Source: Candidatus Zhuqueibacterota bacterium (GTDB taxonomy: Bacteria > Zhuqueibacterota > Zhuqueibacteria > Residuimicrobiales > Krinioviventaceae). From it: DNA of 64,000 nt. The position numbers were made by a program, and so were the translations under genes. The DNA lies in contig JAFGJB010000153.1 of the NCBI GenBank assembly GCA_016929295.1, positions 10,830-74,829 on the forward strand, in the 5' to 3' direction. Below, piece by piece: positions 37,822-64,000 of this stretch; positions within the stretch are counted from its first letter, which is position 1; each line of letters starts with the position of its first letter. The notes beneath the pieces are model-generated. The model was not told where the DNA came from. It saw nothing but the letters and a program-made list of their open reading frames with translations, and searched no databases.

Positions 37822-38445
37822 TCAAAACTTTTGCGCTTTATAAAATATGATCTGCAAAATGAAAAAGAGCAGCGCGCCGGCAAGCGCAATCATACTGTCC
37901 AGTTTGCTGCAAACAAGCGCGGCAAAAAATGCGCAGCTGTCGATCAGGATGACCAACAGGGCGGAATAGAAAAAAATAGAATTCGTCTTGCCGAATTTCA
38001 GATGTTTGAGAGAGTCAATAGTCCAGTTGTATGCCTCTCTATCCAGTTTATAATTTTTCATATGCGAACTGTAAAAACTCTTTATCTTGTTCATGCTCAT
38101 AGCACTCTCAAACCAGGCCACGCGCAAGCGGATCAACGTGAGCAAAAAGAGTACGCCCATGAGAAAAAGTATGACGAATGCAGCCAAGACAACATGACGA
38201 AAAAGAGAAAATTGCAGCAACTCTGACTTTTTCGCGCCCAAGGCCATCAGGCCAACCATTGCCGTCAGGTACGGGATGAAAATACTAATGACATAAAACT
38301 GCACCATTTTGTGTCTGTCTTCCATCGCCTGCGCTGCCGTCTCGCGTGCATATTCAAACTCGGCAATCAAAATGGCATTGGGATCGAGTGGTTTTGCAGC
38401 TTGTTCGCTTTGCTCAGCTAAAGGCTTGGCATTTTCCTGTGTCAT
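37822..38445 (-). CDS. Hypothetical polytopic membrane protein
   Basis: ORF with 4-5 hydrophobic helices. Convergent with the GH94 gene. The long inverted-repeat element lies upstream. Confidence 0.5.
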   Translation of the reverse strand: MTQENAKPLAEQSEQAAKPLDPNAILIAEFEYARETAAQAMEDRHKMVQFYVISIFIPYLTAMVGLMALGAKKSELLQFSLFRHVVLAAFVILFLMGVLFLLTLIRLRVAWFESAMSMNKIKSFYSSHMKNYKLDREAYNWTIDSLKHLKFGKTNSIFFYSALLVILIDSCAFFAALVCSKLDSMIALAGALLFFILQIIFYKAQKF

Positions 38446-38532
38446 GATGTCCTCTCTTCTTACTCTTTTTTAAAACTACAAAATAATGAAACAAATCGCT
38501 ATCAAATATTGAACTGTAGAAATATAACTTTT

Positions 38533-38646
38533 TTCTGCACTCACGCAAAGGCGAGCCGCAAAGGATACGCAAAGAAAAATGAAATATTTTCATTCTTTTC
38601 AAGAACTTGCATATCTTTGCGCCTGCGTCTTTGCGTGAGTGCAGAA
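38533..38646. repeat. Long inverted repeat with perfect 18-bp arms and internal CGCAAAG/CTTTGCG heptamer iterations
   Basis: TTCTGCACTCACGCAAAG (38533-38550) is the exact reverse complement of CTTTGCGTGAGTGCAGAA (38629-38646). The interior holds three direct CGCAAAG copies (38544, 38557, 38568), two CTTTGCG copies (38615, 38629) and a central AATGAAATATTTTCATT near-palindrome. Confidence 0.6.
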
Positions 38647-38844
38647 GATAATATTTTAATGTCCCAACTAAATTACCCGCCCAGAATGGATATTCTGGGC
38701 GATCTCACATAGGGGTACGTGCTTTTTTATCAGGTTCTTGATGCTTTTACTACCTGTAACTGACCTTTCACCTCGTGAAGCTATTTGCTGTTGGATTACA
38801 ACTTCATTTTTTGTAAATTTTGTGATGCACATGATGGAGAAAAG

Positions 38845-39513
38845 ATGCGACGATTTAATCTGGTCATTTTTGATGTGGATGGTACGCTGGTGGACACTGC
38901 GACGGATGTGCATATCTGCCTCAATATGGCGCTGGAAAAAATGAAGCTGCCGACGATTACCGTCGAGATGGCAAAAAAAGCGATCGGACCTGGTCCGAAA
39001 GATTTTATCAAATATATACTGGCAGATCGAATTGACCTGGCGGAAGAATTTCATCATGTATTTCGCCCGCTTTATCTGCAGCATTGTGCGGACAATGCCA
39101 TCCCTTTTGATGGCATTGTGGAACTTTTACAGGAGCTTCGCGATAGAAATATAAAGATGGCCGTCGCTACTAACAAGGCCCGTAACAGCAATAATGCTGT
39201 ACTCACAGCATTACAGCTTGATTCCTATTTCGATATCATCTTGTCGCGCGACGATGTTGAAAATTCAAAACCGTCGCCGGACATGCTGTTTAAAGCGTGC
39301 GATCAACTGAATATCCCGCCGGCTAAAGCGCTGATGCTCGGCGACACCTATAACGATATATATGCTGCAAATGCCGCCGGCATGAAAAGTTGTCTGGCGT
39401 TATGGGGATTTTCGGAGGACTATCAGGATCTCATGGCGATTTCTACCTATGCTATCGAAAATCCCCTGCAGATTCTGGATATTATCGAAAGCGACATTCT
39501 TGAAAATGCCTGA
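38845..39513 (+). CDS. HAD-superfamily hydrolase (phosphoglycolate-phosphatase-like subfamily IA)
   Basis: Start at MRRFNLVIFDVDGTLVDT (DxDGT motif I), ..VATNK.. motif II, ..MLGDTYNDIYAANAAG motif III/IV. Confidence 0.8.
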   Translation: MRRFNLVIFDVDGTLVDTATDVHICLNMALEKMKLPTITVEMAKKAIGPGPKDFIKYILADRIDLAEEFHHVFRPLYLQHCADNAIPFDGIVELLQELRDRNIKMAVATNKARNSNNAVLTALQLDSYFDIILSRDDVENSKPSPDMLFKACDQLNIPPAKALMLGDTYNDIYAANAAGMKSCLALWGFSEDYQDLMAISTYAIENPLQILDIIESDILENA

Positions 39514-39991
39514 AGAAACATTTTTGCCGACCTACAAAGGCTGCCTGATATGCGGCGATCCGCAGGTCAATCCAAACACCCTCAATCGGCGATTCAAAGT
39601 CACGATGGGCGGGGTGGAGGTCGAATTTACCGCAGATGCTCGTCATGTTGGCTATGAGGGCATCGTCCATGGCGGCATCATCACTGCCCTGCTTGATGAG
39701 ACCATTGGCTGGGCTGTCGCCGTCGATCGTAAAAAACTCTTCATGACCGCCGAACTGACCGTTCGTTTCATACGCCCCCTGCCGATAGATTTGATGGTCA
39801 CAGTGAGAGGTCGCTCTGTGGAACACAAGTCCCGCTACTCCATTGCCGAGGGTGAAATCATCGATACGACAGGAACCGTCTATGCCAGAGCCTCGGGAAA
39901 ATTTTTTCTCATGAAAGAAGATCTAGCTCACAAGGTGAACGACTATCTCACCTATCTGGAAAATGACCTCAACATTTTAGCGTCATCATGA
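39506..39991 (+). CDS. Hotdog-fold thioesterase (PaaI/YbgC-like)
   Basis: GIVHGGIITALLDETIGWAV matches the PaaI-type active-site helix. Start taken at MPEETFLPT; 8-bp overlap with the HAD gene. Confidence 0.65.
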   Translation: MPEETFLPTYKGCLICGDPQVNPNTLNRRFKVTMGGVEVEFTADARHVGYEGIVHGGIITALLDETIGWAVAVDRKKLFMTAELTVRFIRPLPIDLMVTVRGRSVEHKSRYSIAEGEIIDTTGTVYARASGKFFLMKEDLAHKVNDYLTYLENDLNILASS

Positions 39992-41802
39992 ATATACTCG
40001 GCATATCCTGTTTTTATCACGACAGCGCGGCCTGCCTGGTGCAGGACGGCAAAATTTCTGCGGCAGCGCAGGAAGAACGGTTCACGCGCAAAAAACATGA
40101 CTTTGGCTTTCCCTATCATGCCATCCACTTTTGCCTTGATTTCAAAAAGCTCTCCATTGAAGATATTGACATCATTTCCTTTTATGACAAACCGTTCCTG
40201 AAATTTGAACGAATTCTCGAAACCTATCTCGCTTATGCACCGCGCGGCTTGAAATCCTATTTGATGGCCATGCCGCTGTGGATCAAACAAAAGCTCTGGA
40301 TCCCGGATATGATCCGCAATGAGCTCAATTATGACAATCGTATTATTTTTCCCGAACATCACGAGTCGCATGCGGCAGCCGCTTTCTTTCCGTCACCTTT
40401 TCAAAAAGCGGCCTTTTTGACAATGGATGGCGTGGGAGAATGGACGACGACTTCATACGGCATCGGCGTCGATAATCACCTCGACATCCTGGCCGAGCTG
40501 CATTTTCCCCATTCTCTTGGCCTGCTCTATTCCGCATTCACCTATTATACGGGATTCAAGGTCAATTCGGGCGAGTATAAAGTCATGGGACTGGCGCCAT
40601 ATGGCGAGCCCCTCTATGTGCAGACGATTTTAGACCATCTTGTTGATCTCAAGCAGGACGGCTCTTTCAAGCTGAATATGTCCTGTTTCAATTATGCCGC
40701 CGGTCTGACAATGACGAACAAAAAGTTTGACGCCCTGTTCGGCGGCCCGCCGAGAAAACCGGAATCAAAACTGACGCAGAAAGAAATGGATCTCGCGCGC
40801 TCCATTCAAGATGTGACAGAAGAAATAATGCTGCGCGCAGCGCGACATGTTCACCAGGAGACGCAGCAGAAATATCTCTGCCTTGCCGGCGGTGTGGCGC
40901 TCAACTGCGTCGGCAATGGCCGGCTGCTGCGCGAGAGCCCTTTTGCTGATATCTGGATTCAACCAGCTGCGGGAGACGCCGGCGGCGCAATCGGCGCCGC
41001 CCTGTTCGCCTGGTATCAGGTGGAAGGACATCCTCGCAAGACAAACGGTGAAGATGCACAGTCCGCTTCTTTGCTTGGCCCCGAGTTCGATGATGACAGC
41101 ATTCGTCTCTTTCTCGATGAAAATGCCATTCCCTACAAAAAACTCACCGACGCCGAGGTGATTGATGTGACAGCGCAACTGCTGACGGAGGAAAATGTCA
41201 TTGGCTGGTTTCAGGGACGCATGGAATTTGGTCCGCGCGCACTGGGCGGGCGCTCGATCATCGGCGATGCCCGTTCACCGCATATGCAATCGCGCATGAA
41301 TCTGAAAATAAAATATCGCGAAAGTTTTCGCCCGTTTGCACCGACGGTTCTGCAGGAACGCGTCAGCGACTACTTTGACATTGACCGCGAGAGTCCCTAC
41401 ATGCTCCTCGTCGCATCTGTTAAAAAAGAAAAACGCCGTCATATGTCGGAGCAGGAACAGCTGCTGTGGGGCATTGACAAACTCAATGTCGTTCGCTCCG
41501 AGGTGCCGGCCATCACCCACGTGGATTACTCGGCTCGCATTCAGACCGTGTCAGAACGGAATAACGGCCGCTATTACCAGCTTTTGAAAAAATTTGCCGC
41601 AAAGACCGGCTGTCCGCTCATCATCAATACGTCCTTCAATGTTCGCGGCGAACCCATCGTTTGCACACCTCAGGATGCTTATAACTGTTTCATGCGCACA
41701 GAAATGGATTTTCTGGTGATGGGCAACTATATTCTTGACAAAAAGAACCAGCCTCATTTTGCCGACAAAAGCAACTGGAAGGTGCAGTATGAGCTTGATT
41801 AG
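39988..41802 (+). CDS. Carbamoyltransferase (NodU/CmcH/HypF-like family)
   Basis: MNILGISCFYHDSAACLVQDGKI..AAQEERFTRKKHD..EHHESHAAAAF..: YrdC/Kae1-like N-domain plus carbamoyltransferase C-domain, 604 aa. Confidence 0.9.
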   Translation: MNILGISCFYHDSAACLVQDGKISAAAQEERFTRKKHDFGFPYHAIHFCLDFKKLSIEDIDIISFYDKPFLKFERILETYLAYAPRGLKSYLMAMPLWIKQKLWIPDMIRNELNYDNRIIFPEHHESHAAAAFFPSPFQKAAFLTMDGVGEWTTTSYGIGVDNHLDILAELHFPHSLGLLYSAFTYYTGFKVNSGEYKVMGLAPYGEPLYVQTILDHLVDLKQDGSFKLNMSCFNYAAGLTMTNKKFDALFGGPPRKPESKLTQKEMDLARSIQDVTEEIMLRAARHVHQETQQKYLCLAGGVALNCVGNGRLLRESPFADIWIQPAAGDAGGAIGAALFAWYQVEGHPRKTNGEDAQSASLLGPEFDDDSIRLFLDENAIPYKKLTDAEVIDVTAQLLTEENVIGWFQGRMEFGPRALGGRSIIGDARSPHMQSRMNLKIKYRESFRPFAPTVLQERVSDYFDIDRESPYMLLVASVKKEKRRHMSEQEQLLWGIDKLNVVRSEVPAITHVDYSARIQTVSERNNGRYYQLLKKFAAKTGCPLIINTSFNVRGEPIVCTPQDAYNCFMRTEMDFLVMGNYILDKKNQPHFADKSNWKVQYELD

Positions 41803-42226
41803 CGACGTTCGTATCGGCCTGGCTCGACTGGATCAATCTCCCCGGAATATGAAAAAGTTTGGCATCACCATGGCTGTGATATTTGGACTGTTGGCCACGC
41901 TGATATTTATTCTCGGCAGCCGGCCGCAGCGCGCCTGGTGGCTGTGGAGTATCGGCGCTCTCTTCCTTGTCCTGGTATTTTTTCTCCCTTTTCTTCTCAA
42001 ACCCATTCATCGTCTCTGGATGGGACTCTCACTCGTCCTCGGCTATTTCATGTCCCGACTCTTGCTCACTCTTCTCTTTTTCCTCGTCATCACTCCTATC
42101 GGCCTGGCAATGCGTCTATTCGGCAAAGATATTCTCAATGAAAAAATAGAGCCTGGCAAAGACAGCTATTGGATTAAAAGACCCGTAAAAAAGATACTGC
42201 CAGATCGCTATGAAAAATTATTCTAA
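41789..42226 (+). CDS. Small polytopic membrane protein (possible SxtJ-like partner of the carbamoyltransferase)
   Basis: Start ATG 41789 overlaps the carbamoyltransferase stop (41800-41802). About 145 aa with 3-4 TM helices. The SxtJ-like label is inferred from gene context only. Confidence 0.45.
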   Translation: MSLISDVRIGLARLDQSPRNMKKFGITMAVIFGLLATLIFILGSRPQRAWWLWSIGALFLVLVFFLPFLLKPIHRLWMGLSLVLGYFMSRLLLTLLFFLVITPIGLAMRLFGKDILNEKIEPGKDSYWIKRPVKKILPDRYEKLF

Positions 42227-42227
42227 A

Positions 42228-42787
42228 TTTAAAAATCACCAATAAGCATGTCGGTTTACTGATTAATTTCAATGTGTTGCAATTGAAAGACGGAGTGAAA
42301 AGGCTTGTAAACAAGTACGATGATAGTGAATGAGCATACATATTTTCATGCCTCGGCGACACTCGGCGTTCCCGGCGGTTGGGTACGCATTGTGGGAATT
42401 AACCAAATTTCACTTTACTTATCCACAGACAAATCTGGAAAAGTGGTCAAAAGCAGTGTAAAAGCTGTCGATTATGTGTTGATGAATTCGAATTTATCCA
42501 CCTTGATTCGGATTATTTTCAACAAGTGGTGATAAGAGCTTTATTATTCACCTTTATTCCACATTTCATTGTTGATATTCTGAAAAAGAATCAGCGTTGT
42601 TTTTTATAAAGTTATAATTAGTTTTTTAACATTATTACTTCTTTTCAACATATCCACAGCGTCTATTACTATAAATTATTTAAATAAATATTAATATATA
42701 TAATAATTATCTGGAACAGATTAAATTTCTTGTCGTATCCCTCATTATTATAAATATCTTTCATAACAGTTAAATTTGGAGGCTCAA
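42228..42787 (+). promoter_or_regulatory. 560-bp AT-rich intergenic region with DnaA-box-like motifs and promoter elements upstream of tldD
   Basis: Perfect TTATCCACA at 42419-42427; one-mismatch boxes TTATCCACC (42494-42502), ATATCCACA (42649-42657), TTATTCACC (42544-42552). About 100 bp nearly pure A/T at 42661-42760. TAAATTTG (42763-42770) resembles an FCB-type -7 element, followed by GGAGG and ATG 42788. Confidence 0.4.
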
Positions 42788-44320
42788 ATGGCAAACGTGA
42801 GCAGAAGGACTTTTCTTAACACGTCCATTGCCGTCGGAGGTGCTGCAGCATTCATGCGAATTATTCCGGGTGCGTGGGTACAATCTGCTAAAGCAGCAGC
42901 TGCGGGATTTTTCGAATCCGAGTTTGGCATGGATGATGAGCTGTGTAAAAAGGCACTCGAAAAGGCGCTGAGCAGAGGCGGCGATTTTGCTGACATCTAC
43001 TTTGAGCACACTGTATCGAATTGGGTGAGTCTGGAGGACGGCAAGGTTGATCGCGCCTACGGCAGTATTGATCTGGGTGTGGGGATCAGAACCGTTAAAG
43101 GAGATCAGACAGGTTATGGCTTCACTCAGGAGCTGACCGAAGAATCGATCCTTGCTGCCGCAGCGACGGCGGCAACGATTGCCGATGGTGCAGCAACTGG
43201 CACGGCCAAAAGCTTTGTCCGCGTGGAAACTGAGAATCACTATCCCCTGGAAAAACTCCTCACCGATATATCGCTTTCTGCCAAACTCCCGTTGGTGAAA
43301 AGCGTGAACGAAAAATGTTTTTCACTGTCCGACCTGATTATAAAGGTCAATGCGACCATGCACGATCAACAAAAAAGGATCATGATAGTGACAAGTGATG
43401 GCGCCAAAGCAGAAGATCTCATTCCGCGCAACTATTTGTCCGCTTCCATTGTGGCTGAAAAAGACGGTCGCCAGGAACGCGCCGGTTGGAATTTTGGTGG
43501 CAGACAGGAATTTTCCTATTTCACCCCGACCGTTGTCGATCGCTTGGCTGATGAGGTTGTGCGCCGCGCAGTCGTACTGTTTGAGGCTGAACAGCCGCCC
43601 GCCGGTGAAATGTCCGTTGTGCTTGGGCCTGGCGTGACTGGTATCCTGCTGCACGAGGCGATTGGCCATGGCATGGAAGCCGATTTCAACCGCAAAGGCA
43701 TCTCGACCTATGCGACAATGATCAGCAAAAAGGTGGCCGAACCTTTTGTCAATATCGTCGATGAAGGCATCACGCCCCGTCAGCTCGGTTCGATAAATGT
43801 TGATGACGAGGGCGTGCCCGGGCAAAGGACGATGTTGGTGGAAAACGGCATCTTGACTAGCTACCTGCACGACCGAATCTCGGCGAAACATTATGGCGTC
43901 AAGCCGACCGGCAACGGCAGGCGGCAAAGTTATCAGCACTATCCCATTCCGCGCATGCGCAATACCTATATGCTAGCCGGCGAGAGCACACCGCAAGATG
44001 TCATAGCATCTGTCAAAAAGGGCATCTACGTCGAAGACATCAGCAACGGCCAGGTGAAAATCGGCGAAGGAGATTTTGCCTTTTATGTGTCGCAGGGCAA
44101 GATGATTGAAAATGGTGAAATCACCAGGCCTGTCAAAGACATCAACATAATGGGTAATGGTCCCAAGATGCTGCAGAATGTGACCATGGTAGCGAATGAT
44201 CTCAAGCTGTACGAAGGCGGCACCGGCATGTGCGGAAAAGACGGACAATCGATGCCGGTTTCATTTGGTCTACCCACCTGTTTGGTGAAATCCATGACTG
44301 TTGGCGGCGTGCAAAAATAG
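42788..44320 (+). CDS. tldD: TldD-family zinc metalloprotease with twin-arginine (Tat) signal peptide
   Basis: Start at the second ATG, after GGAGG. MANVSRRTFLNTSIAVGGAAAFM is a Tat motif (S-R-R-x-F-L). HEAIGHGMEADF HExxxH metal site. TldD/PmbA fold signature (..GEGDFAFYVSQG..). Confidence 0.85.
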   Translation: MANVSRRTFLNTSIAVGGAAAFMRIIPGAWVQSAKAAAAGFFESEFGMDDELCKKALEKALSRGGDFADIYFEHTVSNWVSLEDGKVDRAYGSIDLGVGIRTVKGDQTGYGFTQELTEESILAAAATAATIADGAATGTAKSFVRVETENHYPLEKLLTDISLSAKLPLVKSVNEKCFSLSDLIIKVNATMHDQQKRIMIVTSDGAKAEDLIPRNYLSASIVAEKDGRQERAGWNFGGRQEFSYFTPTVVDRLADEVVRRAVVLFEAEQPPAGEMSVVLGPGVTGILLHEAIGHGMEADFNRKGISTYATMISKKVAEPFVNIVDEGITPRQLGSINVDDEGVPGQRTMLVENGILTSYLHDRISAKHYGVKPTGNGRRQSYQHYPIPRMRNTYMLAGESTPQDVIASVKKGIYVEDISNGQVKIGEGDFAFYVSQGKMIENGEITRPVKDINIMGNGPKMLQNVTMVANDLKLYEGGTGMCGKDGQSMPVSFGLPTCLVKSMTVGGVQK

Positions 44321-44331
44321 GGAGCATAATT

Positions 44332-45654
44332 ATGAGTACCGAGATGAATAATTTATGTGAGTTTGTTTTGGAGACGGCTAAAAAAGCCGGCGCCGATGAC
44401 TGCCGAGTTGCATTTTCCAAAAATCGTTTTGTCGAAGTGCAATATCGCGAGCGCAAGCCGGAGACCGTGAAAGAGGCCACGACACTAGGCGTCAATGTCG
44501 ATATTTATGTGAACGGTCGATACTCGTCGCAGAGCACGGCAGATGTGCGGAAAGAGGCATTGCGGACTTTTGTCGTCAATGCCATAGAGGCGACAAAGTT
44601 GTTGGAAGAAGATCCCTACCGCAGTCTTCCAGATCCCAGCTATTACCAAGGTCGCGCTGATATCGATCTGCAATTGTGCGATTCCGGCTATGAAACAATT
44701 ACACCCGAGCTGAGGCACAGCATGGCCAAAAAGCTTGAGGGCGCCTGTCGTGAAGCTGGCGGCGATGTGGTCATTTCTGTCACGTCGCAAGTTTACGATG
44801 AATTTCAGCAAGAAAAAATACTGACGAGCAATGGTTTTGCCGGTGAAACGCAAGCGACGGTCTGTTTCGCATACGCCGAGATGACGGCGCAAGATGAAGG
44901 TGATCGCCGTCCACAGGGCTATCACTATGTCGTGGATCGATCGTTGAGTAAATTTCCCGACTGTCAGCAAATCGGCAAAGAGGCCGCTGCCAGGACTATG
45001 GAATTGATGGGTGGAAAGAAAATACCGACAGAGACGTTGCCCATCATCATCGAGAATCGCGTTGCGGGTAATGTCGTTGATGGATTTGTCTCGGCGATGA
45101 GCGGCTGGGCGCTGCAGCAAAAACGCTCTTTTCTCATCGATAAAAAAGGGGAACGTGTTGGCAGCGATGTATTCACGCTCGTAGATGATCCTCACATTAT
45201 CGCAGGACTCGGCAGTCGCTTGTACGATGGCGATGGTTTTGCCACGCGCAAGCGCACCATGATTGAAAACGGCATTTTGAATGAATATTACATCGACTGG
45301 TACCGCAGCCGCAAGCTCGGGGTGAATCCAACGACCGGCGGAACATTCAACTTGATTCTGCCGCCGGGCAGCCGCACGGTTCAGGAGATCATGAAAGATC
45401 TGGGACGAGGAATTCTGATCAACGGTTTCATCGGCGGCAACTCCAACTCCAATACCGGCGATTTCTCCATCGGCATCACCGGCACCCTGTTCGAAAACGG
45501 CGAGCGGACCCAGGCGGTGGCCGAGATGAATATCGCCGATAATCACCTCAAATTCTGGCAAAAGCTGGCCGAGACGGCGAATGATCCGTGGACCTATAGC
45601 AGCTGGAGGATGCCGAGTTTGGTGTTTGGGGATGTGGTGGTGTCGGGAGTGTGA
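44332..45654 (+). CDS. pmbA: PmbA/TldE-family protein (partner of TldD)
   Basis: Start at MSTEMNNLCEFVLETAKKAGADD, 11 bp after the tldD stop. TldD/PmbA family C-terminal pattern ..GDFSIGITGTLFENGE..; lacks HExxxH, as PmbA/TldE does. Confidence 0.8.
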   Translation: MSTEMNNLCEFVLETAKKAGADDCRVAFSKNRFVEVQYRERKPETVKEATTLGVNVDIYVNGRYSSQSTADVRKEALRTFVVNAIEATKLLEEDPYRSLPDPSYYQGRADIDLQLCDSGYETITPELRHSMAKKLEGACREAGGDVVISVTSQVYDEFQQEKILTSNGFAGETQATVCFAYAEMTAQDEGDRRPQGYHYVVDRSLSKFPDCQQIGKEAAARTMELMGGKKIPTETLPIIIENRVAGNVVDGFVSAMSGWALQQKRSFLIDKKGERVGSDVFTLVDDPHIIAGLGSRLYDGDGFATRKRTMIENGILNEYYIDWYRSRKLGVNPTTGGTFNLILPPGSRTVQEIMKDLGRGILINGFIGGNSNSNTGDFSIGITGTLFENGERTQAVAEMNIADNHLKFWQKLAETANDPWTYSSWRMPSLVFGDVVVSGV

Positions 45655-45695: not shown

Positions 45696-45780
45696 AAAAC
45701 CAGACCGAGAATTTTCACGAATGAAGGACTTTAGATTTATGTAACAGCGTCACTATGCGCGTTGTTCTCGGTCTGGTTTT
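45696..45780. repeat. 16-bp perfect inverted repeat with 53-nt spacer at the left edge of the low-GC island
   Basis: AAAACCAGACCGAGAA (45696-45711) and TTCTCGGTCTGGTTTT (45765-45780) are exact reverse complements. The right arm is followed by GTCAAGTTTTATATTT. Lies 41 bp after the pmbA stop. Confidence 0.5.
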
Positions 45781-46221
45781 GTCAAGTTTTATATTTGCAT
45801 TTTCTGCAAAACCGCACGTTGACTATTATCCCTAAAAAAAGCAGAGTTGGCAAAGATTTAATATGTTCTATAAACAATCTATAATAGGCTATTAATAGTC
45901 CCTCAGAAACTTGGCCGCTTTCGAAATATTCTGCTTTTAAAGGTTGTTCTCCATATAAAATAATGCCGGGGAAATTAAATCGAACCAAAAATCTACTATG
46001 TGACAATACTTGATATGCCGTCCCGGGAATAGTTAACGATCTTTATATTTTGCACCGACTGTTCTGTAGAATAAGTTTCGCTTCTCATAACTGATATTTT
46101 TCAGGAAATGCATGTAAGCGCCCCCAAGCCATACTGTGAAGGAAAAGACGAAATTGATTGGCTTGAAAAATGGGGCACGAGGTGCGATCCGAAAACAGAT
46201 GCTACTCTATTGGAGAGAGAA

Positions 46222-49200
46222 ATGAAAAAATTATTCTGTATAATTTTGTGCATCCTTGCTGTATCTACGCTTTTCGCGCAAAACAAGATTGATCCTACCC
46301 TCAAAAAAACCATCGAAAACAATACACTGCGGAAAGTCGATGCCGCAGATGTTGAAGTGCTCATAAAAATAACGAATAGCGACCTGTCCGCGTTGGAAAA
46401 AAGTGGCGCCAAAATAAAATACGTCATAGATGATGAATACGTCCGCGCTGCCGTACCCATTTTTAAAATTACTGAATTAGCAAATAATAAAGCCGTTTGC
46501 TACATAACCGGTTCTCGGCAAATGCAGCCACATAACGACATTGCCGCTTGTGTTTGCGGTGGTATCGTGGCAGCACAAGCCGGTTACACCGGAGAAGATG
46601 TTCTCATTGGGATTGTTGACACAGGACTTGATTTCAAGCATCCTGGATTCCTCAATGCAGATGGCAGTACCAGAGTTTTATACTTCTGGGACCAGACCGA
46701 TTTAGGATCAGACCAGCCAACGAACCAATTTTCCTATGGTTCAGAATGGACGAGCGCCGATATTGACGGCGGAGCCTGCACGTCAAAGGACACCGAAGGT
46801 CATGGCACGCACGTTGCCGGTTGTGCGGCGCAGCATTTTTATCATGACGCAGATGAGCAATATAACAGCGGCACGCTTTCGAACTTGCTCATTGTCAAGA
46901 CTGATTTTAATGGCCTGCACATTTTGGACGGTATTGTTCGAATTTTTCAAAAGGCGGAACAACTTGGCAAACCGGCTATTGTGAATCTAAGCTTAGGAAG
47001 TCGATGGGGTCCCCATGATGGTACTGATCCATTAACGGCTGCAACGGACCTGCTTACAGGACCCGGAAAAATTATTGTGCGATCGGCCGGAAATGATGGT
47101 GCTCGCAAATTTCATAACTATGCCATAGCTGATGCCGATGGCAATAGTATGGTGTTTAAGCTGTCGACAACTGTTGAAAATCTCGTAATTGGATGCTGGT
47201 ATGATGGGTCATCGAAAGTCGAAGCTGAAATTTTCTTGCCAGGTAACTTGAGTACGGGAAAAATTGCTACAGGTAAAGAGGCTACATTTAATATTGGCAA
47301 TACCAGCCGCCTGGAAATCTTAAACGCGCCATATGGCGTTGAGAACTATAATGGCGATAATAATTTAATGATTTCCTTTGTTGGCAAAATTCCAGCGGGC
47401 GAATATAGAATAGTTCTTTTCTCCAATGACAGGCCAGCAGTGTATGCTTGGTTGTATGACTGCTCGGTCGATACAAGTTTTGCCTTTGAAAATTCAAGCG
47501 ACCATTTTAGTCTGGCCAACGAAGCCTGTGGACGGAATGTCATTGTCATTGGTGCTGCAGTCACACGCAAAGAATTTTATGCTGTGGACGAACATGGCAA
47601 AGCGGCAACATGGGTAACACACGAAGAGGAAGAAACAGTAGCGTCGTTCAGCTCTGCTGGGCCAACGCGTGATGGCCGCCACAAGCCGGATGTGGTTATG
47701 CCAGGATCTTATATTACCACTGCCTTTTCCACTGATGCTATTTCGTCAGGCCCAGTAGGATCCTTGAGCATGATGCGCGAAGGTCCCATATATATCAATC
47801 CTTCTACAGTGAATACATTTGCCTATGTCCAGGGCACCAGCAGTTCCAGTCCGATATTTGTCAGTACGGCTGCGAAAACTTTTGCCTTTTTTAAAAAGAA
47901 ATTTGGACATTTCCCGGGTCCGACAGATATAATTGATCAAATCATAAAATATGCTGCAAAACCTGTATTCCAGTTGAAGGACGATTGTCAAAAACCAGTC
48001 GCAGGGCTCTCGCCCGTCTGGGATGAAAAAGCCGGATGGGGATATCTGGATTTACGCGCGCTTTTAAAAGAAGATATCCTCATTGTCACATGCGAGCAAA
48101 CTCAAGCAGATCAACTTGAGGTTCAATTTAGTAATCAGCAGGGCGTCGTCGAGAATCTCAATTCATATGTTATCACCGGCGCTTCGGAATCTCGTGTAGT
48201 GGAACTGCTACGACAGGGAGAAAGAGTCACGCTCACCTTGAATACGCCTTTAACTCCCGGCTTTAGAGATACTTTGAAAATCGACGCGGGCTTGGATCAA
48301 CGCCTCATTCCCATAAAAAAAATCGGCACCATTGTCGAATTGACCGATTTAACGACGAGAATGACATGGGATGCTGCACACTCTCCCTATTATGTGCATG
48401 GACAAATTGTCGTATACGAAAATGCATCGCTGACACTTTTAGCGGGCACGCAAATAGAGTTTATGCCCAATCCAAATGATGGATCTTCCGGGATAGTCGT
48501 TTTAGGTGAGCTGAAGGCATGTGGAGAAGAAAACTCGCCTGTTACAATACTGCCAGCAGCCCAAGCGGACTATTGGGATGGTATTTACATTGATCGAAAA
48601 GGGATGGCAAATCTAACCTGTAGTGAAATTGGCTACGCAATAGATGCAATAATGTGTTGGGGAGGAGATCTGGAAATCCACCACTCGATGATTGCGCATG
48701 CAAAAGGATTCGGTGTTTTCCTTGATAGTTGTGCTGCTAAAATCGATCACCTTCTATTGTGGGATACAAACGGCACTTCTGATAGCGGTAGCCTATGGAT
48801 TCAAAATACAATTGCTGACAACAATTTGTCTCACTTGACGCTTTATCAAAATATGCCGAATGGTATAGTTTCTCTAGGGCAACATCCGATAATTATTGAC
48901 TCTAGTATCATTGTTGAGAGCTCCATCTATGCGGAACCATATTATGGCAGCAAAATAATCATTAATGAATCGGATATATATAATTGCCAAATTTTTGGAA
49001 CTGTAAATGAGAGCGAATGCATTAGTGCTGATCCACGCTTTGAAAATCCGGATTCAGGTGATTTTAGACTGCGAGCTGATTCTCCGTGTCCAACATGGGG
49101 TGCCATAATTGACGACATAAATGATAAAAATATACAAGCTTCACCGTCTGCTTTTCGCATACATCAGAACTATCCTAATCCATTCAATGGCCACACCATC

Positions 49201-49425
49201 ATAAATTTTGATATGCCAAGGAAGGTTCATATCAATTTGGCCATATATAATATTCGAGGTGAACTTGTCAAGACATTGGCAGATAAAGAGTACAATACCG
49301 GCTATTACACACTTTCGTGGAATGGTATTGGCGACTCTGGGCAAATAATGTCTAGCGGAATATATTTTTGCCGTCTATCTGGAGACAGTTTTTCGCACAG
49401 TATTCGAATGCTGTACTTAAAATAG
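46222..49425 (+). CDS. S8 (subtilisin-like) serine peptidase with beta-helix region and T9SS C-terminal sorting domain
   Basis: Start at MKKLFCIILCILAVSTLFAQ (signal peptide; RBS GGAGAGAGAA). Catalytic triad contexts IGIVDTGLD, HGTHVAGCAA, GTSSSSPIFV. Right-handed beta-helix-like repeats in the middle. C-terminal ..NYPNPFNGHTIINF..GIYFCRL..MLYLK is a T9SS CTD. Confidence 0.9.
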   Translation: MKKLFCIILCILAVSTLFAQNKIDPTLKKTIENNTLRKVDAADVEVLIKITNSDLSALEKSGAKIKYVIDDEYVRAAVPIFKITELANNKAVCYITGSRQMQPHNDIAACVCGGIVAAQAGYTGEDVLIGIVDTGLDFKHPGFLNADGSTRVLYFWDQTDLGSDQPTNQFSYGSEWTSADIDGGACTSKDTEGHGTHVAGCAAQHFYHDADEQYNSGTLSNLLIVKTDFNGLHILDGIVRIFQKAEQLGKPAIVNLSLGSRWGPHDGTDPLTAATDLLTGPGKIIVRSAGNDGARKFHNYAIADADGNSMVFKLSTTVENLVIGCWYDGSSKVEAEIFLPGNLSTGKIATGKEATFNIGNTSRLEILNAPYGVENYNGDNNLMISFVGKIPAGEYRIVLFSNDRPAVYAWLYDCSVDTSFAFENSSDHFSLANEACGRNVIVIGAAVTRKEFYAVDEHGKAATWVTHEEEETVASFSSAGPTRDGRHKPDVVMPGSYITTAFSTDAISSGPVGSLSMMREGPIYINPSTVNTFAYVQGTSSSSPIFVSTAAKTFAFFKKKFGHFPGPTDIIDQIIKYAAKPVFQLKDDCQKPVAGLSPVWDEKAGWGYLDLRALLKEDILIVTCEQTQADQLEVQFSNQQGVVENLNSYVITGASESRVVELLRQGERVTLTLNTPLTPGFRDTLKIDAGLDQRLIPIKKIGTIVELTDLTTRMTWDAAHSPYYVHGQIVVYENASLTLLAGTQIEFMPNPNDGSSGIVVLGELKACGEENSPVTILPAAQADYWDGIYIDRKGMANLTCSEIGYAIDAIMCWGGDLEIHHSMIAHAKGFGVFLDSCAAKIDHLLLWDTNGTSDSGSLWIQNTIADNNLSHLTLYQNMPNGIVSLGQHPIIIDSSIIVESSIYAEPYYGSKIIINESDIYNCQIFGTVNESECISADPRFENPDSGDFRLRADSPCPTWGAIIDDINDKNIQASPSAFRIHQNYPNPFNGHTIINFDMPRKVHINLAIYNIRGELVKTLADKEYNTGYYTLSWNGIGDSGQIMSSGIYFCRLSGDSFSHSIRMLYLK

Positions 49426-49432
49426 TAGCCTC

Positions 49433-52405
49433 ATGAATGCCGACGTACTACAAAATTACAATCAAAACGATCGTGAGGTGAACATATTTATTTCCTCGAC
49501 ATTTCTTGACATGAACAATGATCGTGATTTTTTAAAGAACAAAGCGTTCTTGCAGCTCGCGGAAATATGTGAAAATAGGGGTGTGATCCTTACAGTCGTC
49601 GATTTGCGCTGGGGTGTTAATACTGATGAGATCGATAGTGAGAACGAAACCGAAAAACTCGAAAAAAAGGTGCTTGATGTTTGCTTTGATAGAATTGACC
49701 GATGTAATTATTTTGTCGGCATTCTTGGGGCGAGATATGGCTATATACCGAGGCATCTTTCAAGTCATATTATCGAACTGTTTGATGAAAAGTCGTCACC
49801 TATTGGACGTTCCGTAACCGAACTTGAGATAATTTATGCGACCCGGAAAAAAGGCTTGAACCAGGATAATATGCTCTTTTGCCTGCGCGATGATGATTAT
49901 TCTAAAAGTTTAGGTGCAGATTTTATCGAACATAATAACGAAAATCGTCAAAAACTAAAAGAACTATGTGATTACGTCAAGAGATATCAACCTCATTTTA
50001 TCGAAGGCTACAAGAATGTTCATGTGCTCAACAAAGGTATATTTGAATTTTTTAAAAATGTTCTAGACAGGCGATTCCCAGCGCCGGCAGCTCATGATCC
50101 GAATGAACTTTATTCATTAACCCACTACTTTTACGCCCTGCGGCAGCGACGATACTATGAAAAAAATGATCTTCTTCACTCAGAATTGAATCAATTCATA
50201 GAAAAGAAAGATCAAACTCTCCTGGTACTTGAAGGGGCGATCGGTTCTGGTAAATCATCTTTGCTAGCAAACTGGGGACTGTCATTGCTCGAAAAGAACA
50301 CAGCTAATGTCATTCTTCACTTTGTTGGGATAAGTAGTCAAAGTACAACATGGCAATCCACTCTAAGACACATGATATATGAACTTTGTTTTGATAACGG
50401 ATTGCCCTTTCTAATGCCTGAGAATGAGCTTGATCTACCCATGCTGCTGTATCAAACATTGCAGACGGTTAGCAAAAAACGCCGTGTGGTCATCGTTATT
50501 GACGGAATAAATAAATTCGAATTTGAAAATGGGACAACAGATTTATTTTGGCTGCCAGGAAATCTGCCCCAGAACGTGTCAATTATCATTTCAACTACAG
50601 CTCCCATCGAACAATTTTATAATCATGACGCTTGTAAATTCAAACTTGGGCATGAAGCTTTCTATGCCAGGGGGCAACAGCGTGACGAATTTATAAAACA
50701 ATACTTGGACAAAATACAATTTCGCGAGCTAAGCAAACAGCAAATTTCAAAGATTAGCAATCATCACCTTGCGTCAACGCCAAAGTTTTTGGTGACGATT
50801 CTGGAGAGTCTTTCATTATTTGGACTCGGAAAACGTGACAGTCCAGAATCAACCGAGAAAAACGACGATTATAAATATTATCTAGATAGCGAACTAGAAT
50901 ATTACATATCATCTAATAGTTATGTTGAATTATACGAGCGGATTTTTGACAAAATTGAGAAATTCAGTCAAGAAAGTAAGGAAATTTTGCGAGATGGCCT
51001 TCGATTTATATTTTACTCAAAAGACGGGCTTGCTGAAGAAGAGGTACTCCATTTAATCAGCAGAACGACCAAAAGTGAAATAATGTATATTGACTGGCAG
51101 CCTGTCTACTTGTCGATAGCAAACCTATTGGTAAATAATTCGGGCTTGCTATCGATCAGAGAAGAAGCAATCCGCCAGGCCGTGCAGAAAAAGTATGCGA
51201 TTGGCAAAGATTCTGAATTAGCATATAGGCAGGAAATACTGAATTATTTTGTGAGAAATAGAAATTCAACTCGTAAACTACAAGAATACGCGTGGCAGCT
51301 ATCACAATTGGGCTACAATGAAAAGTTGTTTAGGTATTTAAAACAGAGATCAGTATTTCATGATTTTTGGAGATTAGATCCTATTTCATTAAAAAAATAT
51401 TTTGTTTTTCTTATTAACAGTAAAGCAATTTATTTAAAAGATATCGCCGAGCATTTTGCAAAATTAGCCAAATCGAACAGTAAGAATGCAAAATTCCTTG
51501 AATCATTGTCTATTTTTTTATTTGATTTGGGTTTCTATGAGCATGCAAAAGAAATACAAGAAGACTTGATCAATCAGTTCAAAACGAAGGACAAAAATAT
51601 CTATCAAAGAACGTTGAGATTACTGGCTAATAGCGAGCTAAGACTTGGCAACTGGAGCAATGCTTATAGATACTATAAAAAGCAAGCATCAATTGTTACG
51701 CCTGCCGTATGTTTGGATGATTTTAATTCATTGCAAAAAAGCTATGGAAATCAGGCTATCGTTCTCGTAAAAATGGGTAAGAGTAAAAGGGCTCTTGAGC
51801 GCCTTGAAAAACAAGAAAATATTTGCAAAGACTATCATTTCTACGATGGTTTGATGAAGTGCTACGGCACATATGCGAATGCTTTTATTCAATTGCGAAA
51901 GTTAAAGGAAGCCTTGGAGTATCAGCATGAACAGGAGATATTAGCCAAGCGTATGAACGATCTCAAGGATTTGCATATCTCGCTTGGCAACAAGGCTGTT
52001 ATTTTGCAGACTTTGGGCAAATTTGAAGAAGCATTTCGTACTCATGAGCAAGAACGAGAAATATGCCTTAAAATTGGTGACCGCTACGGGCTTCAAGCTT
52101 CTTATGGCAATCAGGGCCATATTTTTTTAAAAAGAGGGATGTATATTGAAGCACTATCTCTTTATCTTCGACAAGAAGAAATTTGCATGGACATATCTGA
52201 AATGTGGGGCCTGCAAAATGCTTATTTTAATATAGGCGTTGCTTATACAAGATTAAAAAATCCACTCAAAGCAGCAGACTTTATAAGCAAGTGCATAAAA
52301 ATATGTGTTGAATTGCACTATAAAAAAGACTTACGCAAAGCTAAAATTCTACTATTTGCTTTAAAATTACTTAAACTTGGATTCAAGTCAGCCAAAAAAG
52401 CCTAA
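49433..52405 (+). CDS. NLR-like STAND NTPase: DUF4062-like N-terminal domain, NACHT-type P-loop NTPase, C-terminal TPR array
   Basis: N-term VNIFISSTFLDMNNDRDFL..VDLRWGV..GARYGYIP matches DUF4062 conserved blocks. Walker A LLVLEGAIGSGKSSLLANW (about nt 50231-50254); Walker B RRVVIVIDGINKFE (about nt 50486-50509). C-terminal about 300 aa of 34-aa TPR/KLC-like repeats. No signal peptide or TM. Start 7 bp after the S8 stop. Confidence 0.85.
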   Translation: MNADVLQNYNQNDREVNIFISSTFLDMNNDRDFLKNKAFLQLAEICENRGVILTVVDLRWGVNTDEIDSENETEKLEKKVLDVCFDRIDRCNYFVGILGARYGYIPRHLSSHIIELFDEKSSPIGRSVTELEIIYATRKKGLNQDNMLFCLRDDDYSKSLGADFIEHNNENRQKLKELCDYVKRYQPHFIEGYKNVHVLNKGIFEFFKNVLDRRFPAPAAHDPNELYSLTHYFYALRQRRYYEKNDLLHSELNQFIEKKDQTLLVLEGAIGSGKSSLLANWGLSLLEKNTANVILHFVGISSQSTTWQSTLRHMIYELCFDNGLPFLMPENELDLPMLLYQTLQTVSKKRRVVIVIDGINKFEFENGTTDLFWLPGNLPQNVSIIISTTAPIEQFYNHDACKFKLGHEAFYARGQQRDEFIKQYLDKIQFRELSKQQISKISNHHLASTPKFLVTILESLSLFGLGKRDSPESTEKNDDYKYYLDSELEYYISSNSYVELYERIFDKIEKFSQESKEILRDGLRFIFYSKDGLAEEEVLHLISRTTKSEIMYIDWQPVYLSIANLLVNNSGLLSIREEAIRQAVQKKYAIGKDSELAYRQEILNYFVRNRNSTRKLQEYAWQLSQLGYNEKLFRYLKQRSVFHDFWRLDPISLKKYFVFLINSKAIYLKDIAEHFAKLAKSNSKNAKFLESLSIFLFDLGFYEHAKEIQEDLINQFKTKDKNIYQRTLRLLANSELRLGNWSNAYRYYKKQASIVTPAVCLDDFNSLQKSYGNQAIVLVKMGKSKRALERLEKQENICKDYHFYDGLMKCYGTYANAFIQLRKLKEALEYQHEQEILAKRMNDLKDLHISLGNKAVILQTLGKFEEAFRTHEQEREICLKIGDRYGLQASYGNQGHIFLKRGMYIEALSLYLRQEEICMDISEMWGLQNAYFNIGVAYTRLKNPLKAADFISKCIKICVELHYKKDLRKAKILLFALKLLKLGFKSAKKA

Positions 52406-61111: not shown

Positions 61112-62332
61112 ATGATCGCTTCTTTGAAAAGAACCATATATTTGCTCTCCGGCAGGCTGCGGGGCGCATTTTTTGTTCTTCTCACTTTGTCTGTCGTCGG
61201 CATTCTTCTCTACGGACAAAATATAGTCCGCGAGCTGCGCGACGAGTCTCGCGATATCGTCGAGTTTTATGTGAAAACCGTCGAGGGAATTGCCACAGCC
61301 GACATCGATGCTAAAGCCCTGGGGTGGGCCTTTACGAACATTAATGAAAAAATTGATTTTCCCATCATCATGACCGATCCCAATGGCATCCCGACCGGCT
61401 GGCGCGGCCTGGACATCGACTCGGAGGACAAATCACCGCAGGCGATTGAGGAAGTGAAAAAAATAATGTCGCGCATGAAACAGCAGACGCCGCCGGTTCC
61501 GATTTATTACAAGGATCCGACCACCGCAGAAGAAAGCATCCTGCAATATCTGTATTATGGAGAATCAAAAAATATCGTTCAACTCTCACTTTTACCCTAT
61601 ATCTCTTTGAGTATCATGGGACTGCTGGCTCTCATCGCCTTTGTTGGCTTTAACAGCATCAAAGCCAGTGAACAACGATTCATATGGGTTGGCATGGCGA
61701 AAGAGACCGCCCATCAGCTGGGCACGCCGGTGTCGTCTCTTTTGGGGTGGGTCGAAATGCTCAAAACAGGTCATGTGCAGAACAGTGACATGGCGACTAT
61801 CGCTCAGGATATGCGAACGGATGTCGCCCGTCTGGAAAAGGTGGTTGCGCGGTTTTCGCAAATCGGCTCCCAATCCGATCTCAAGGTTCAGGATATTCTT
61901 CCCATCTTTCGCGATATCGCCGACTATTTCATTCGGCGCCTGCCACAAGCCGGCAAAGAGATAAAAATAGTCCAACACTACGACGCTGTTCCGCCCATCG
62001 CTGTCAACAGAGATTTATTCGAGTGGGCGATCGAGAATTTAATCAAAAATTCCATCGATGCCGTCAAACGGAAAAAGGGCATCATTGAAATTTCGACCGG
62101 CATGATAGATGACAGACGAGTTTATATTGACATCCGTGATAACGGCATTGGCATAACCGCCAAGAGAAAACAGGACATTTTCAAACCCGGCTATTCGACA
62201 AAAAAACGGGGATGGGGTCTGGGATTGAGCCTGGCGAAACGCATCATCGAAGAATATCATCATGGTCGACTTTATGTCAAGGAGAGTCACCTGGACGAAG
62301 GCACGACCATGCGCATCGAATTGGGTCATTGA
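61112..62332 (+). CDS. Sensor histidine kinase (two TM, HisKA plus HATPase_c)
   Basis: ATG immediately follows the yfhO-like stop (TAAATG). TM1 FFVLLTLSVVGILLY, TM2 ISLSIMGLLALIAFVGF. H-box ETAHQLGTPVSSLLGWVEML; N/G boxes LIKNSIDAV..IRDNGIGI..GWGLGLSLAK. No response regulator gene adjacent. Confidence 0.85.
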   Translation: MIASLKRTIYLLSGRLRGAFFVLLTLSVVGILLYGQNIVRELRDESRDIVEFYVKTVEGIATADIDAKALGWAFTNINEKIDFPIIMTDPNGIPTGWRGLDIDSEDKSPQAIEEVKKIMSRMKQQTPPVPIYYKDPTTAEESILQYLYYGESKNIVQLSLLPYISLSIMGLLALIAFVGFNSIKASEQRFIWVGMAKETAHQLGTPVSSLLGWVEMLKTGHVQNSDMATIAQDMRTDVARLEKVVARFSQIGSQSDLKVQDILPIFRDIADYFIRRLPQAGKEIKIVQHYDAVPPIAVNRDLFEWAIENLIKNSIDAVKRKKGIIEISTGMIDDRRVYIDIRDNGIGITAKRKQDIFKPGYSTKKRGWGLGLSLAKRIIEEYHHGRLYVKESHLDEGTTMRIELGH

Positions 62333-62337
62333 GCGGA

Positions 62338-63315: not shown

Positions 63316-63452
63316 GCCTGTCTCCTCAAAAAATGTAATATAAAATTTTTGCGGCATTTTCAACAGCTTTTTTGCGGCAAGAATTGGCTTGTGATTCGAT
63401 GATATTATTATTAACATTCTGCGGGTGAGGCGAAAAAATGTAATATATAGGC

Positions 63453-64000
63453 ATGAAATACTTTGATCAAAGCATAAAGATAACCACATCCATGCATCAC
63501 GCTGTTCCCTCGCTCATCTTCACCGTCGACGACGATCTGCGAGCTTTACATTCATTTGATAGAACAACAATCATTAACGATGTCGAGCATATGATGCTGC
63601 AAATAAATGACGGTCATGACTTTGGCATCGAACTCGCACAGGAATGGGTGCACTATCTGGAATTATTGCTGCGCGGAAAAAAGCAGCAGCTCGCCGATCC
63701 CTACGCCGATATACGAAATTATCACGTTCGCTCATTTTCACAATCAAGGCCAGATTTGTGCCAGGACGATTCTCTATTCATTCTCGATGAAATGCCAAAA
63801 GAAATTATGCATTCGAGCAATGGTGACAAAGATTTGTTGCCCAAATCGCTTTTTGTCATGGCTCTTGGCGGCGCGGATACAACTTTTTACAAGAGACTCG
63901 ATCATGAGCAAATGTTATCATTTGCCAGTGAGTTTTATGCCGCGGATGTCGTGGAGGTATTTGTCCGGCACAAGGTCGCGGATTTGATACCGCGCGGATT
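63453..64000 (+). CDS. Hypothetical protein, partial (runs off window end)
   Basis: Manual translation from ATG 63453: MKYFDQSIKITTSMHHAVPSLIFTVDDDLRALHSFDRTTIINDVEHMMLQINDGHDFGIELAQEW... stays open for 182 codons to the window end. Preferred over the track ORF 63607..63987 in another frame on composition. Divergent from the epimerase gene. Confidence 0.45.
   Translation, partial: MKYFDQSIKITTSMHHAVPSLIFTVDDDLRALHSFDRTTIINDVEHMMLQINDGHDFGIELAQEWVHYLELLLRGKKQQLADPYADIRNYHVRSFSQSRPDLCQDDSLFILDEMPKEIMHSSNGDKDLLPKSLFVMALGGADTTFYKRLDHEQMLSFASEFYAADVVEVFVRHKVADLIPRG

Follow-up and report, generated by a model that had tools for sequence, protein, structure and literature searches.

A 114-nt palindrome between divergent KSB1 genes, probably selfish or mobile repeat DNA, and the phage and plasmid modules that share its heptamer array

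Among described systems, two classes of repeat come closest to the element reported here. Repetitive extragenic palindromes (REPs) and their REPIN doublets are short, non-coding extragenic repeats that occur as singlets and as inverted doublets folding into hairpins of about 100 nt; they leave no target-site duplications and are acted on in trans by an enzyme (RAYT, also called TnpA-REP), and while gene 3' ends tolerate them, spacers of divergent genes seldom contain them. Miniature inverted-repeat transposable elements (MITEs) such as Correia/NEMIS, ERIC, and Nezha are non-coding, 100 to 150 nt long, and bounded by terminal inverted repeats, fold into whole-element hairpins, show intergenic presence/absence polymorphism, and have the potential to alter neighbouring promoters. 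The element studied here is a 114-nt imperfect palindrome (positions 38533 to 38646, without an assigned strand) in a 64-kb stretch of a candidate division KSB1 chromosome (contig JAFGJB010000153.1, positions 10,830 to 74,829), referred to below as the window. It is located between a minus-strand membrane protein gene (37822 to 38445) and the divergently oriented gene of a HAD-family hydrolase (38845 to 39513, plus strand). The palindrome probably represents selfish or mobile DNA; regulation of the genes next to it is probably not its role. More specifically, we give an even chance to the proposal that it is an inverted doublet of a REPIN/MITE-like non-autonomous repeat, in which an array of CGCAAAG heptamers forms a putative protein recognition site.

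The palindrome and its insertion between divergent genes

An original prediction, made from the sequence alone, had described an elaborate palindromic element in this intergenic region, and its anatomical claims were borne out. The arms at 38533-38550 (TTCTGCACTCACGCAAAG) and 38629-38646 are exact reverse complements, and they reach 21 nt if one mismatch is allowed (95%; 38533-38553 and 38626-38646). Three CGCAAAG heptamers start on the plus strand at 38544, 38557, and 38568 (spacing, 13 and 11 nt) and two lie on the minus strand (38615-38621 and 38629-38635), as claimed; a sixth, degenerate copy (TGCAAG) is found at 38606-38611. Each arm contains an additional degenerate unit between units 1 and 2, so that the KSB1 arms comprise four units, the second of which is degenerate. 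The predicted central near-palindrome, AAAAATGAAA/TTTCATTCTT (38575 to 38597, no strand assigned), is likewise present and represents the junction of the inner ends of two modules, each end carrying an A-rich stretch and ATGAAA. We define the repeat module as TCTCACGCAAAG plus further CGCAAAG units. The left module (38533 to 38592, plus strand) consists of TTCTGCA and CTCACGCAAAG, followed by a degenerate unit (CGAGC), CGCAAAG, GATA, CGCAAAG, and AAAAATGAAA, and aligns with the other copies described below. The right module (38584 to 38646, minus strand), read on the minus strand, comprises TTCTGCA and CTCACGCAAAG, followed by CGCAGG, CGCAAAG, ATA, TGCAAG, and TTCTTGAAAAGAATGAAAAT. The central ATGs are at 38579-38581 on the plus strand and at 38593-38591 on the minus strand; in phage contig L128 (6440-6480), the same ...CGCAAAGAAAAAATGAAAA junction forms the start of a real gene.

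The structure of the palindrome is far beyond chance, as judged from the inverted-repeat expectation, the clustering of the heptamers, and the fold z-scores. Specifically, perfect 18-nt inverted repeats within 150 nt are expected 1.4e-4 times per 64 kb, and the palindrome is the longest inverted repeat of the window, with 96 of 124 alignment columns identical when it is aligned to its own reverse complement. Five of the 20 CGCAAAG copies of the window fall inside 92 nt (Poisson, 4e-11). The potential to form a hairpin of about 110 nt, which had also been predicted, is reflected by a calculated RNA fold of -60.3 kcal/mol (z = -9.9; 0 of 200 shuffles) and a DNA fold of -38.2 kcal/mol (z = -10.3). 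As in MITEs, inverted repeats (arms of 18 to 21 nt) bound a small element of well under 600 bp, and coding capacity is lacking: the only open reading frames are artefacts of the palindrome that are not kept in a second KSB1 copy, and a six-frame peptide query against 5.8 billion proteins gave no match at E<=10. No Rfam family reached the gathering threshold; the permissive mode returned only sub-threshold matches to plant miRNA precursors, which were dismissed as noise of the kind that any long hairpin produces. BLAST of the 278- to 400-nt region against E. coli genomes, plasmids, and phages gave no match. An nhmmer model built from the three KSB1 copies detected no further modules in the window or in 14 KSB1-related loci.

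The divergent placement of the palindrome had been predicted correctly, as had its distances from the flanking start codons: 88 bp separate it from that of the minus-strand gene (ATG at 38445) and 199 bp from that of the HAD gene (ATG at 38845). Orthologous loci were identified via homologues of the membrane protein on five contigs, L019 to L023, with 73% (L019), 67%, and approximately 42 to 44% identity. The divergent arrangement with the HAD gene is kept in L020 to L023, and the 4HBT thioesterase gene is also present in L021 to L023; L019 ends 107 nt upstream of the membrane protein gene, whereas the other four contigs span the spacer. In these four relatives the divergent spacer measures 142 to 144 bp, compared to 400 bp in the window, and the palindrome is absent from all of them as well as from the 107 upstream nucleotides of L019. 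In an alignment of the spacers (A1), L019, L020, L021, and L022 each have just one gap, about 242 columns long, which covers the palindrome, a second hairpin, and the surrounding DNA. On both sides of this gap the sequence is conserved: a block proximal to the membrane protein gene (38473 to 38512, minus strand; ..ATAGCGATTTGTTTCATTATTTTGTAGTTT..), situated between the palindrome and the gene, is kept in L019 to L023, and a block proximal to the HAD gene (38781 to 38830, plus strand; ..GCTGTTGGATTACAAC..TTTTGTAAATTT..) is kept in L020, L021, and L022. Because the spacer of the relatives is only about 142 bp long, retains both proximal blocks, and lacks the palindrome, the segment from about 38513 to 38780 (240 to 268 nt with approximate boundaries, no strand assigned) is, as judged from this alignment, a lineage-specific insertion between two conserved promoter-proximal blocks. 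It triples the spacer between the two promoters, and cruciform extrusion could occur. Most likely the palindrome is a passenger at this locus, not a conserved element that controls the flanking genes.

This result bears directly on the functions that had been suggested. The original prediction had named a riboswitch-like leader, a small RNA (sRNA), and an operator array as candidates, and had stated that a lack of conservation in related genomes would argue against function; that lack is what was found. A riboswitch-like leader is contradicted by the absence of the palindrome from the orthologous regions that were read, by the missing Rfam match, and by its position upstream of both proximal blocks, for which reason neither flanking 5' untranslated region (UTR) should contain it. 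An sRNA gene would be expected to have a promoter and terminator of its own and to be conserved; a scan of 38300-38950 revealed neither a sigma-70-like promoter nor an intrinsic terminator, and orthologues lack the element. Nor does the palindrome look like a terminator, i.e., a G+C-rich stem with a U-tract downstream of a gene, and there is nothing to terminate, since the region is divergent and no gene lies upstream on either strand. An operator specific to this locus does not agree with orthologous promoters that lack the palindrome. In particular, a direct-repeat operator of the response regulator type (PhoB/OmpR-like) is not indicated, the unit period being variable (13/11, 14/10, and 15/10 nt in the three KSB1 copies versus 8 to 9 nt in phages) and the array not being conserved in orthologues. 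Protein binding by the heptamer array, if it exists, would be a property of the repeat family and not of the window locus. The fallback named in the original prediction, a REP/MITE-like repetitive extragenic element, is closest to the data, with related copies in KSB1, phage contigs, and cyanobacterial plasmids. For the locus itself, the outcome is that tempting annotations (riboswitch, sRNA, operator) are removed as unsupported, and that inserted repeat DNA has disrupted the divergent promoters of a gene pair that is otherwise conserved.

Copies of the module in KSB1, phages, and plasmids

The original prediction had proposed a search of the genome for the 18-bp arm as a way to recognise a multicopy element; a scan of 185,579 representative genomes with the arm yielded a single true relative: of seven matched genomes, six showed nothing beyond the seed. 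The exact 18-mer gave no true match in JGI metagenomes; as it contains TTCTGCA, it is too KSB1-specific for wide scans. The true match, on contig RQOI01000583.1 of a KSB1 metagenome-assembled genome (MAG) (6761-6825; L006), extends over 65 nt of the right arm in minus-strand reading, so that three KSB1 copies are available, i.e., the two window arms and L006. Here, 56 of 63 aligned bases are identical to the right module with two gap columns, and the 47 nt beyond the 18-nt seed reach z = 8.5 against shuffles (binomial for 38/45, 9e-17). An Nramp gene begins 194 nt downstream of the L006 module, the contig ends 109 nt away from it, and no inverted partner was found in the remaining contig sequence. 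Seven contigs carry orthologues of this Nramp gene (83 to 87% identity); six keep the Nramp promoter block without the module, and the seventh (L064), with 89 nt upstream, is uninformative. Consequently, as known from MITEs, presence/absence polymorphism at orthologous sites is seen at both KSB1 loci. The right arm aligns to L006 with 2 gap columns but to its partner arm with 15, and it shares with L006 a TTCTTGAA block that the left module does not have; for these reasons the two arms are, on the evidence of the alignments, two distinct end types and not the product of a recent local self-duplication.

Two further candidate relationships of L006 were rejected. Additional homology between the window tail and L006 (GTRAAAGGTCAGTT) was not significant (25 of 500 shuffles), and L006 does not represent the same locus with the module upstream of a membrane protein orthologue, since the sequence following the module does not match the conserved block. 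Several lineages show variation at the intergenic site that separates the UDP-glucose dehydrogenase gene from the Nramp gene: two relatives compared here (L066 3331-4001 versus L062) have spacers of about 150 and 670 nt, the extra DNA being unrelated. Upstream of one Nramp orthologue, at a contig end (L065 1-80), there is a different palindromic repeat, composed of ACGTGAA and ACGTCAA heptamers, with 22-nt arms that are 91% complementary and 24 nt apart; its units resemble parS half-sites (GTTTCAC).

Outside KSB1, the module was found mainly in viral contigs. A search of IMG/VR with CACGCAAAG..CTTTGCGTG, from which the KSB1-specific tip had been dropped, recovered several palindromes of the same architecture, with three GCAAAG units per arm and CTCACG/CGTGAG tips. 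The single-arm pattern CTCACGCAAAGNCGCAAAG matched 63 stretches in viral contigs, whereas the reversed control pattern matched none, and a triple-heptamer pattern without prefix matched 81 stretches, most of them preceded by yTCa. A position weight matrix built from 153 array starts delineates a self-contained module from -5 to +23, reading T-C-T-C-A, CGCAAAG, g, CGCAAAG, r, CGCaAAG, g, with a weak A-rich patch upstream and nothing conserved past +23. The core, which can be written as TCTCACGCAAAGNCGCAAAG or in degenerate form as CTCACRCRRAGNCRCRRAG, thus spans about 29 nt in phages (TCTCA-CGCAAAG-g-CGCAAAG-r-CGCaAAG); the KSB1 copies are extended to about 60 nt. In an alignment of 13 sequences (A2; three KSB1 arms, eight phage copies, and two Nostocales copies) all are in register, and CTCACGCAAAG.CG is invariant. 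Scans of viral contigs with KSB1-type spacing or with the inner-arm sequence gave chance matches or none, and heptamer arrays with 4- to 9-nt spacers were discarded, as nearly all of them were 12-nt coding tandem repeats or signal-peptide codons. Rfam contains no entry matching the module, and literature searches with literal sequence strings retrieved PCR primers but no description of it; the heptamer-array repeat family appears to be undescribed.

The host contigs, which encode portal, tail, and helicase proteins, are genuine phages; one (L109) is Mu-like, and a contig can carry up to five modules. They share no gene family, none being present in more than 4 of the 63 loci, and no neighbouring gene is common to the 63 loci. 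According to crude gene calls, on which all counts of gene context rest, 58 of 77 instances are intergenic; 12 lie in convergent and 1 in divergent spacers, and among those between co-directional genes 25 or more are in sense and 14 in antisense orientation. An inverted partner within 150 nt was detected for 8 of 73 modules by exact matching and for about 13 of 73 if variant partners recognised by eye are included (approximately 10 to 18%), compared to 0.8% of control windows. The family thus consists mostly of singlets, and its doublets can fold into long hairpins. As in REP/REPIN families, singlets coexist with inverted doublets, and the copies are extragenic and depleted between divergent genes. 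In one pair of related phages, a homologous spacer occurs with and without the module. Note that in three contigs (L128 6440-7003, L133 3943-4488, and L125 2088-2928) one small open reading frame of about 115 to 165 amino acids is bracketed by inverted modules in the manner of a mini-cassette; the two such frames examined have no PHROG match.

In Nostocales plasmids, the 19-mer of the module resides inside MITE-like units with their own terminal inverted repeats. These units (L086 to L090, from plasmids of Nostoc, Sphaerospermopsis, Calothrix, and Dolichospermum) are bounded by approximately GCGTTGCTGATTGAAAGTATGAAT and ATTCATACT..CAGCAACGCC, carry TCTCACGCAAAGGCGCAAAG just inside the left end, and occupy unannotated spacers, in one case inside a type III-B CRISPR module. 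Overall, a module of about 29 nt recurs intergenically in KSB1 chromosomes, Nostocales plasmids, and dozens of uncultivated phages that are not related to each other. A mobile module would represent a REPIN/MITE-like family of unusual architecture, with a direct heptamer array in place of a hairpin unit and without target duplication, and would also mark the passage of DNA between phages and their hosts; a module acting as a signal would be one shared by very different phages.

Weighing the explanations

The selfish-repeat explanation rests on several features: the element is non-coding; insertion polymorphism is seen at two independent KSB1 loci; not only the motifs but also their spacers are conserved at non-homologous sites; the hosts share nothing else; and the family shows an extragenic and 3'-end bias together with a singlet/doublet dichotomy. 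According to this explanation, the doublet and about 130 nt of unrelated DNA with the second hairpin were inserted between the proximal blocks of the divergent pair in this KSB1 lineage. The family would spread as selfish non-autonomous DNA, like REP/REPIN or MITE elements; the direct heptamers with their TCTCA prefix would form the recognition array for a trans-acting DNA-binding or mobilising protein, and the inverted pair would supply two such ends. A number of observations weigh against it. No target-site duplication was found at boundary offsets 0 to 7 in the window, where erosion is possible, or at the module-gene-module units of L128, L133, and L125. Neither a transposase nor a RAYT nor an integrase/recombinase gene was found in the 64-kb window, and the phage copies showed no linkage to a transposase, a RAYT, or a recombinase; likewise, a cognate autonomous element with matching ends was found neither in the window nor at the 63 phage loci nor among the 18-mer matches, the KSB1-specific 18-mer being the only query of the genome and metagenome scans. 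With one copy in 64 kb and one true 18-mer match in these scans, the KSB1 subfamily appears to be rare and not high-copy. The unit is a direct array that cannot fold on itself as a single module, and not the 20- to 40-nt imperfect palindrome with a 5' tetranucleotide typical of REPs, for which reason the module is not a REP in the strict sense. KSB1 units are spaced by 10 to 15 nt and phage units by 8 to 9 nt, and the apparent homology of the two groups rests on about 20 invariant bases and the shared architecture. Finally, many phage singlets lie 5 to 40 nt before a ribosome-binding site and start codon and are about 2:1 co-oriented with the flanking genes, a placement that could point to a function in expression.

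A broader proposal may be considered, tentatively and as somewhat improbable, namely that the module is an undescribed, phylum-crossing cis element, largely phage-borne and recognised by a conserved protein system. Candidates would be a new mobilising enzyme with no requirement for hairpin units or target duplications, or a widely shared expression/termination signal; the KSB1 palindrome would be the doublet ("replicative") form of the element. Unlikely in our view is a site for a regulatory DNA-binding protein of the stoperator-, ribbon-helix-helix-, or winged-helix-like type, in which case the KSB1 copies would be phage-derived operator cassettes modulating the divergent promoters. Prefix and direct repeats do make up a discrete 29-nt motif, several copies occur per phage genome, nearly all of them intergenic and many just upstream of start codons, and in both KSB1 genomes 194 to 199 nt separate the outer edge from the start codon of the facing gene. 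Yet spacers and flanks, not the contact motif alone, are conserved between the non-homologous KSB1 loci, the phages carrying the motif share no genes and thus offer no common regulator, promoter-bearing divergent regions are avoided (1 versus 12 convergent), and the motif is missing from the orthologous promoters. Within the window no transcription factor or other regulator gene lies near the palindrome, and a unit spacing of 8 to 15 nt is awkward for cooperative binding on one face of the helix. An RNA-level element is less probable still: the doublet would act as a stabilising or terminating hairpin, the singlet as a 5' leader with Shine-Dalgarno-like AAAGG motifs serving as ribosome standby or enhancer, and the window copy as an sRNA or leader. 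The very stable fold, phage doublets that often lie 9 to 24 nt past a stop codon between co-directional genes, singlets that frequently lead directly into AGGAG-ATG, and the sense bias of about 25 (or more) to 14 speak for it. They are countered by the window copy itself, which is placed upstream of the two proximal blocks, where, between divergent genes, there is nothing to terminate and where no promoter or terminator consensus was found (38300-38950), by the lack of a U-tract after the hairpins and of a matching Rfam family, and by the third of the phage copies that are antisense to their neighbours.

The two remaining explanations concern the window locus only, and both are very improbable. 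Tests already run disfavour a local inverted duplication of ordinary spacer DNA without any family, in which outside matches would be low-complexity GCAAAG coincidences. Although there is one copy in 64 kb and some phage GCAAAG arrays are plainly coding tandem repeats, the 65-nt match in L006 (z = 8.5), the 63 stretches matching the true pattern versus none for the reversed control, and the TCTCA prefix, which lies outside the prefix-free pattern but was recovered in most arrays of that scan, contradict coincidence; moreover, aligning the two arms takes more gaps than aligning the right arm with L006. An inverton, in which the 18- to 21-nt inverted repeats would flank an invertible 72-nt segment with a phase-variable promoter directed toward either gene, has the slightest prospect of being correct. 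Perfect outer arms around an asymmetric interior and the placement between divergent genes would fit, and KSB1 belongs to the FCB group, in which invertons are common. Against this, the sole independent assembly (Logan contig L001) has the same orientation without a break at the repeats, the 64 kb contain no recombinase gene, the interior is largely palindromic as well, singlets make up most of the family, and the Bacteroidota -7 motif TAnnTTTG is not enriched.

Surroundings of the palindrome and relation to known elements

The palindrome is separated from the HAD-side block by 134 nt, which include the second hairpin. This hairpin had been predicted at 38679-38698; it exists, but it is longer, comprising a perfect 10-bp stem and a 4-nt loop (CGCCCAGAAT-GGAT-ATTCTGGGCG) at 38678 to 38701 (no strand assigned) within the inserted segment. 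It is unique in the window, is not followed by a T-run on either strand, and no relatives of it were found. Two Logan contigs of run SRR13394437 (L001 and L063, 1-13 in each) end inside this hairpin and overlap by 13 nt only; the stem is shorter than the k-mer size of the assembler, and strain heterogeneity or a drop in coverage are possible causes of the break. Both promoter-proximal blocks share an inverted TTTTGTA(G/A)(T/A)TTT motif, which may be the promoter element of this clade. The Bacteroidota -7 box was dropped as promoter evidence, with 41 occurrences in the window compared to 33 expected.

The neighbours of the palindrome are ordinary chromosomal genes, among them a GH94 phosphorylase. 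The membrane protein has 207 residues, no Pfam domain, and the same sequence as JW998_07595 from a candidate division KSB1 MAG, and the HAD gene opens a run with 4HBT thioesterase and carbamoyltransferase genes. This run continues (39449-45654) with an SxtJ-like protein, a 70-residue open reading frame (42320-42532), and a pair of TldD/PmbA-type peptidases, and it looks like a small natural-product or peptide-maturation cluster. About 40 nt past the stop codon of the TldD/PmbA pair lies a second foldback (45696-45780), with perfect 16-nt arms (AAAACCAGACCGAGAA and TTCTCGGTCTGGTTTT) 53 nt apart, whose sequence is unrelated to the palindrome. The region 46108-52405, in which the GC content falls to 0.37 to 0.41 around 48 to 52 kb, encodes a 1,105-residue S8 peptidase with a type IX secretion system (T9SS) sorting tail, followed by a 990-residue DUF4062-NACHT-TPR protein (STAND NTPase), which may be an acquired defence-type gene. 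At the window end, a YfhO-histidine kinase-epimerase run (58751-63489) is syntenic with L060 (289-4859); the Nramp gene that neighbours the L006 module directly follows this run in L060 but not in the window.

A comparison with known systems places the module near several of them without full agreement with any. With REP/REPIN elements it shares the features listed at the outset, the trans-acting enzyme being a proposal in its case. In contrast, the REP unit is an imperfect palindrome with a GTAG head, while the module is a direct array of three to four heptamers behind TCTCA; the window contains no RAYT, the KSB1 subfamily is apparently low-copy, and the family is found mainly in phage contigs. 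The palindrome resembles MITEs in size, lack of coding capacity, terminal inverted repeats, hairpin, polymorphism, and a potential influence on adjacent promoters, but differs in having no target-site duplication and no parent insertion sequence with matching ends, and in that singlets outnumber doublets. Three to four direct repeats per arm and inverted, non-identical "left" and "right" arms recall the ends of transposons (Mu attL/attR, Tn7, IS21, and Tn402); there, the sites measure 19 to 22 bp, whereas module units are 8 to 15 nt apart and lack 5'-TG..CA-3' tips flanked by duplications. Unlike Mu ends, the modules of the Mu-like contig L109 are internal, not terminal. The string TCACGC-AAAG-GCGCAAAG may resemble the MuA sites R1 and R2 (..CACGAAAAACGCGAAAG and ..TCACGATAAATGCGAAAAC); resemblances to CIRCE, the IS26 inverted repeat, the T3/T7 promoter, attC, and parS were set aside as partial or untestable. 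The stoperators and start-associated sequences of mycobacteriophages are also short asymmetric motifs that recur intergenically, often near start codons; unlike stoperators, which belong to one phage cluster and its repressor, the module is spread over KSB1 chromosomes, cyanobacterial plasmids, and phages that are not related to each other, and it forms inverted doublets. Correia/NEMIS, ERIC, and Nezha have no sequence similarity to the module, and the sole known elements that share its core are the uncharacterised MITE-like units of Nostocales plasmids, in which the core is internal to other inverted repeats.

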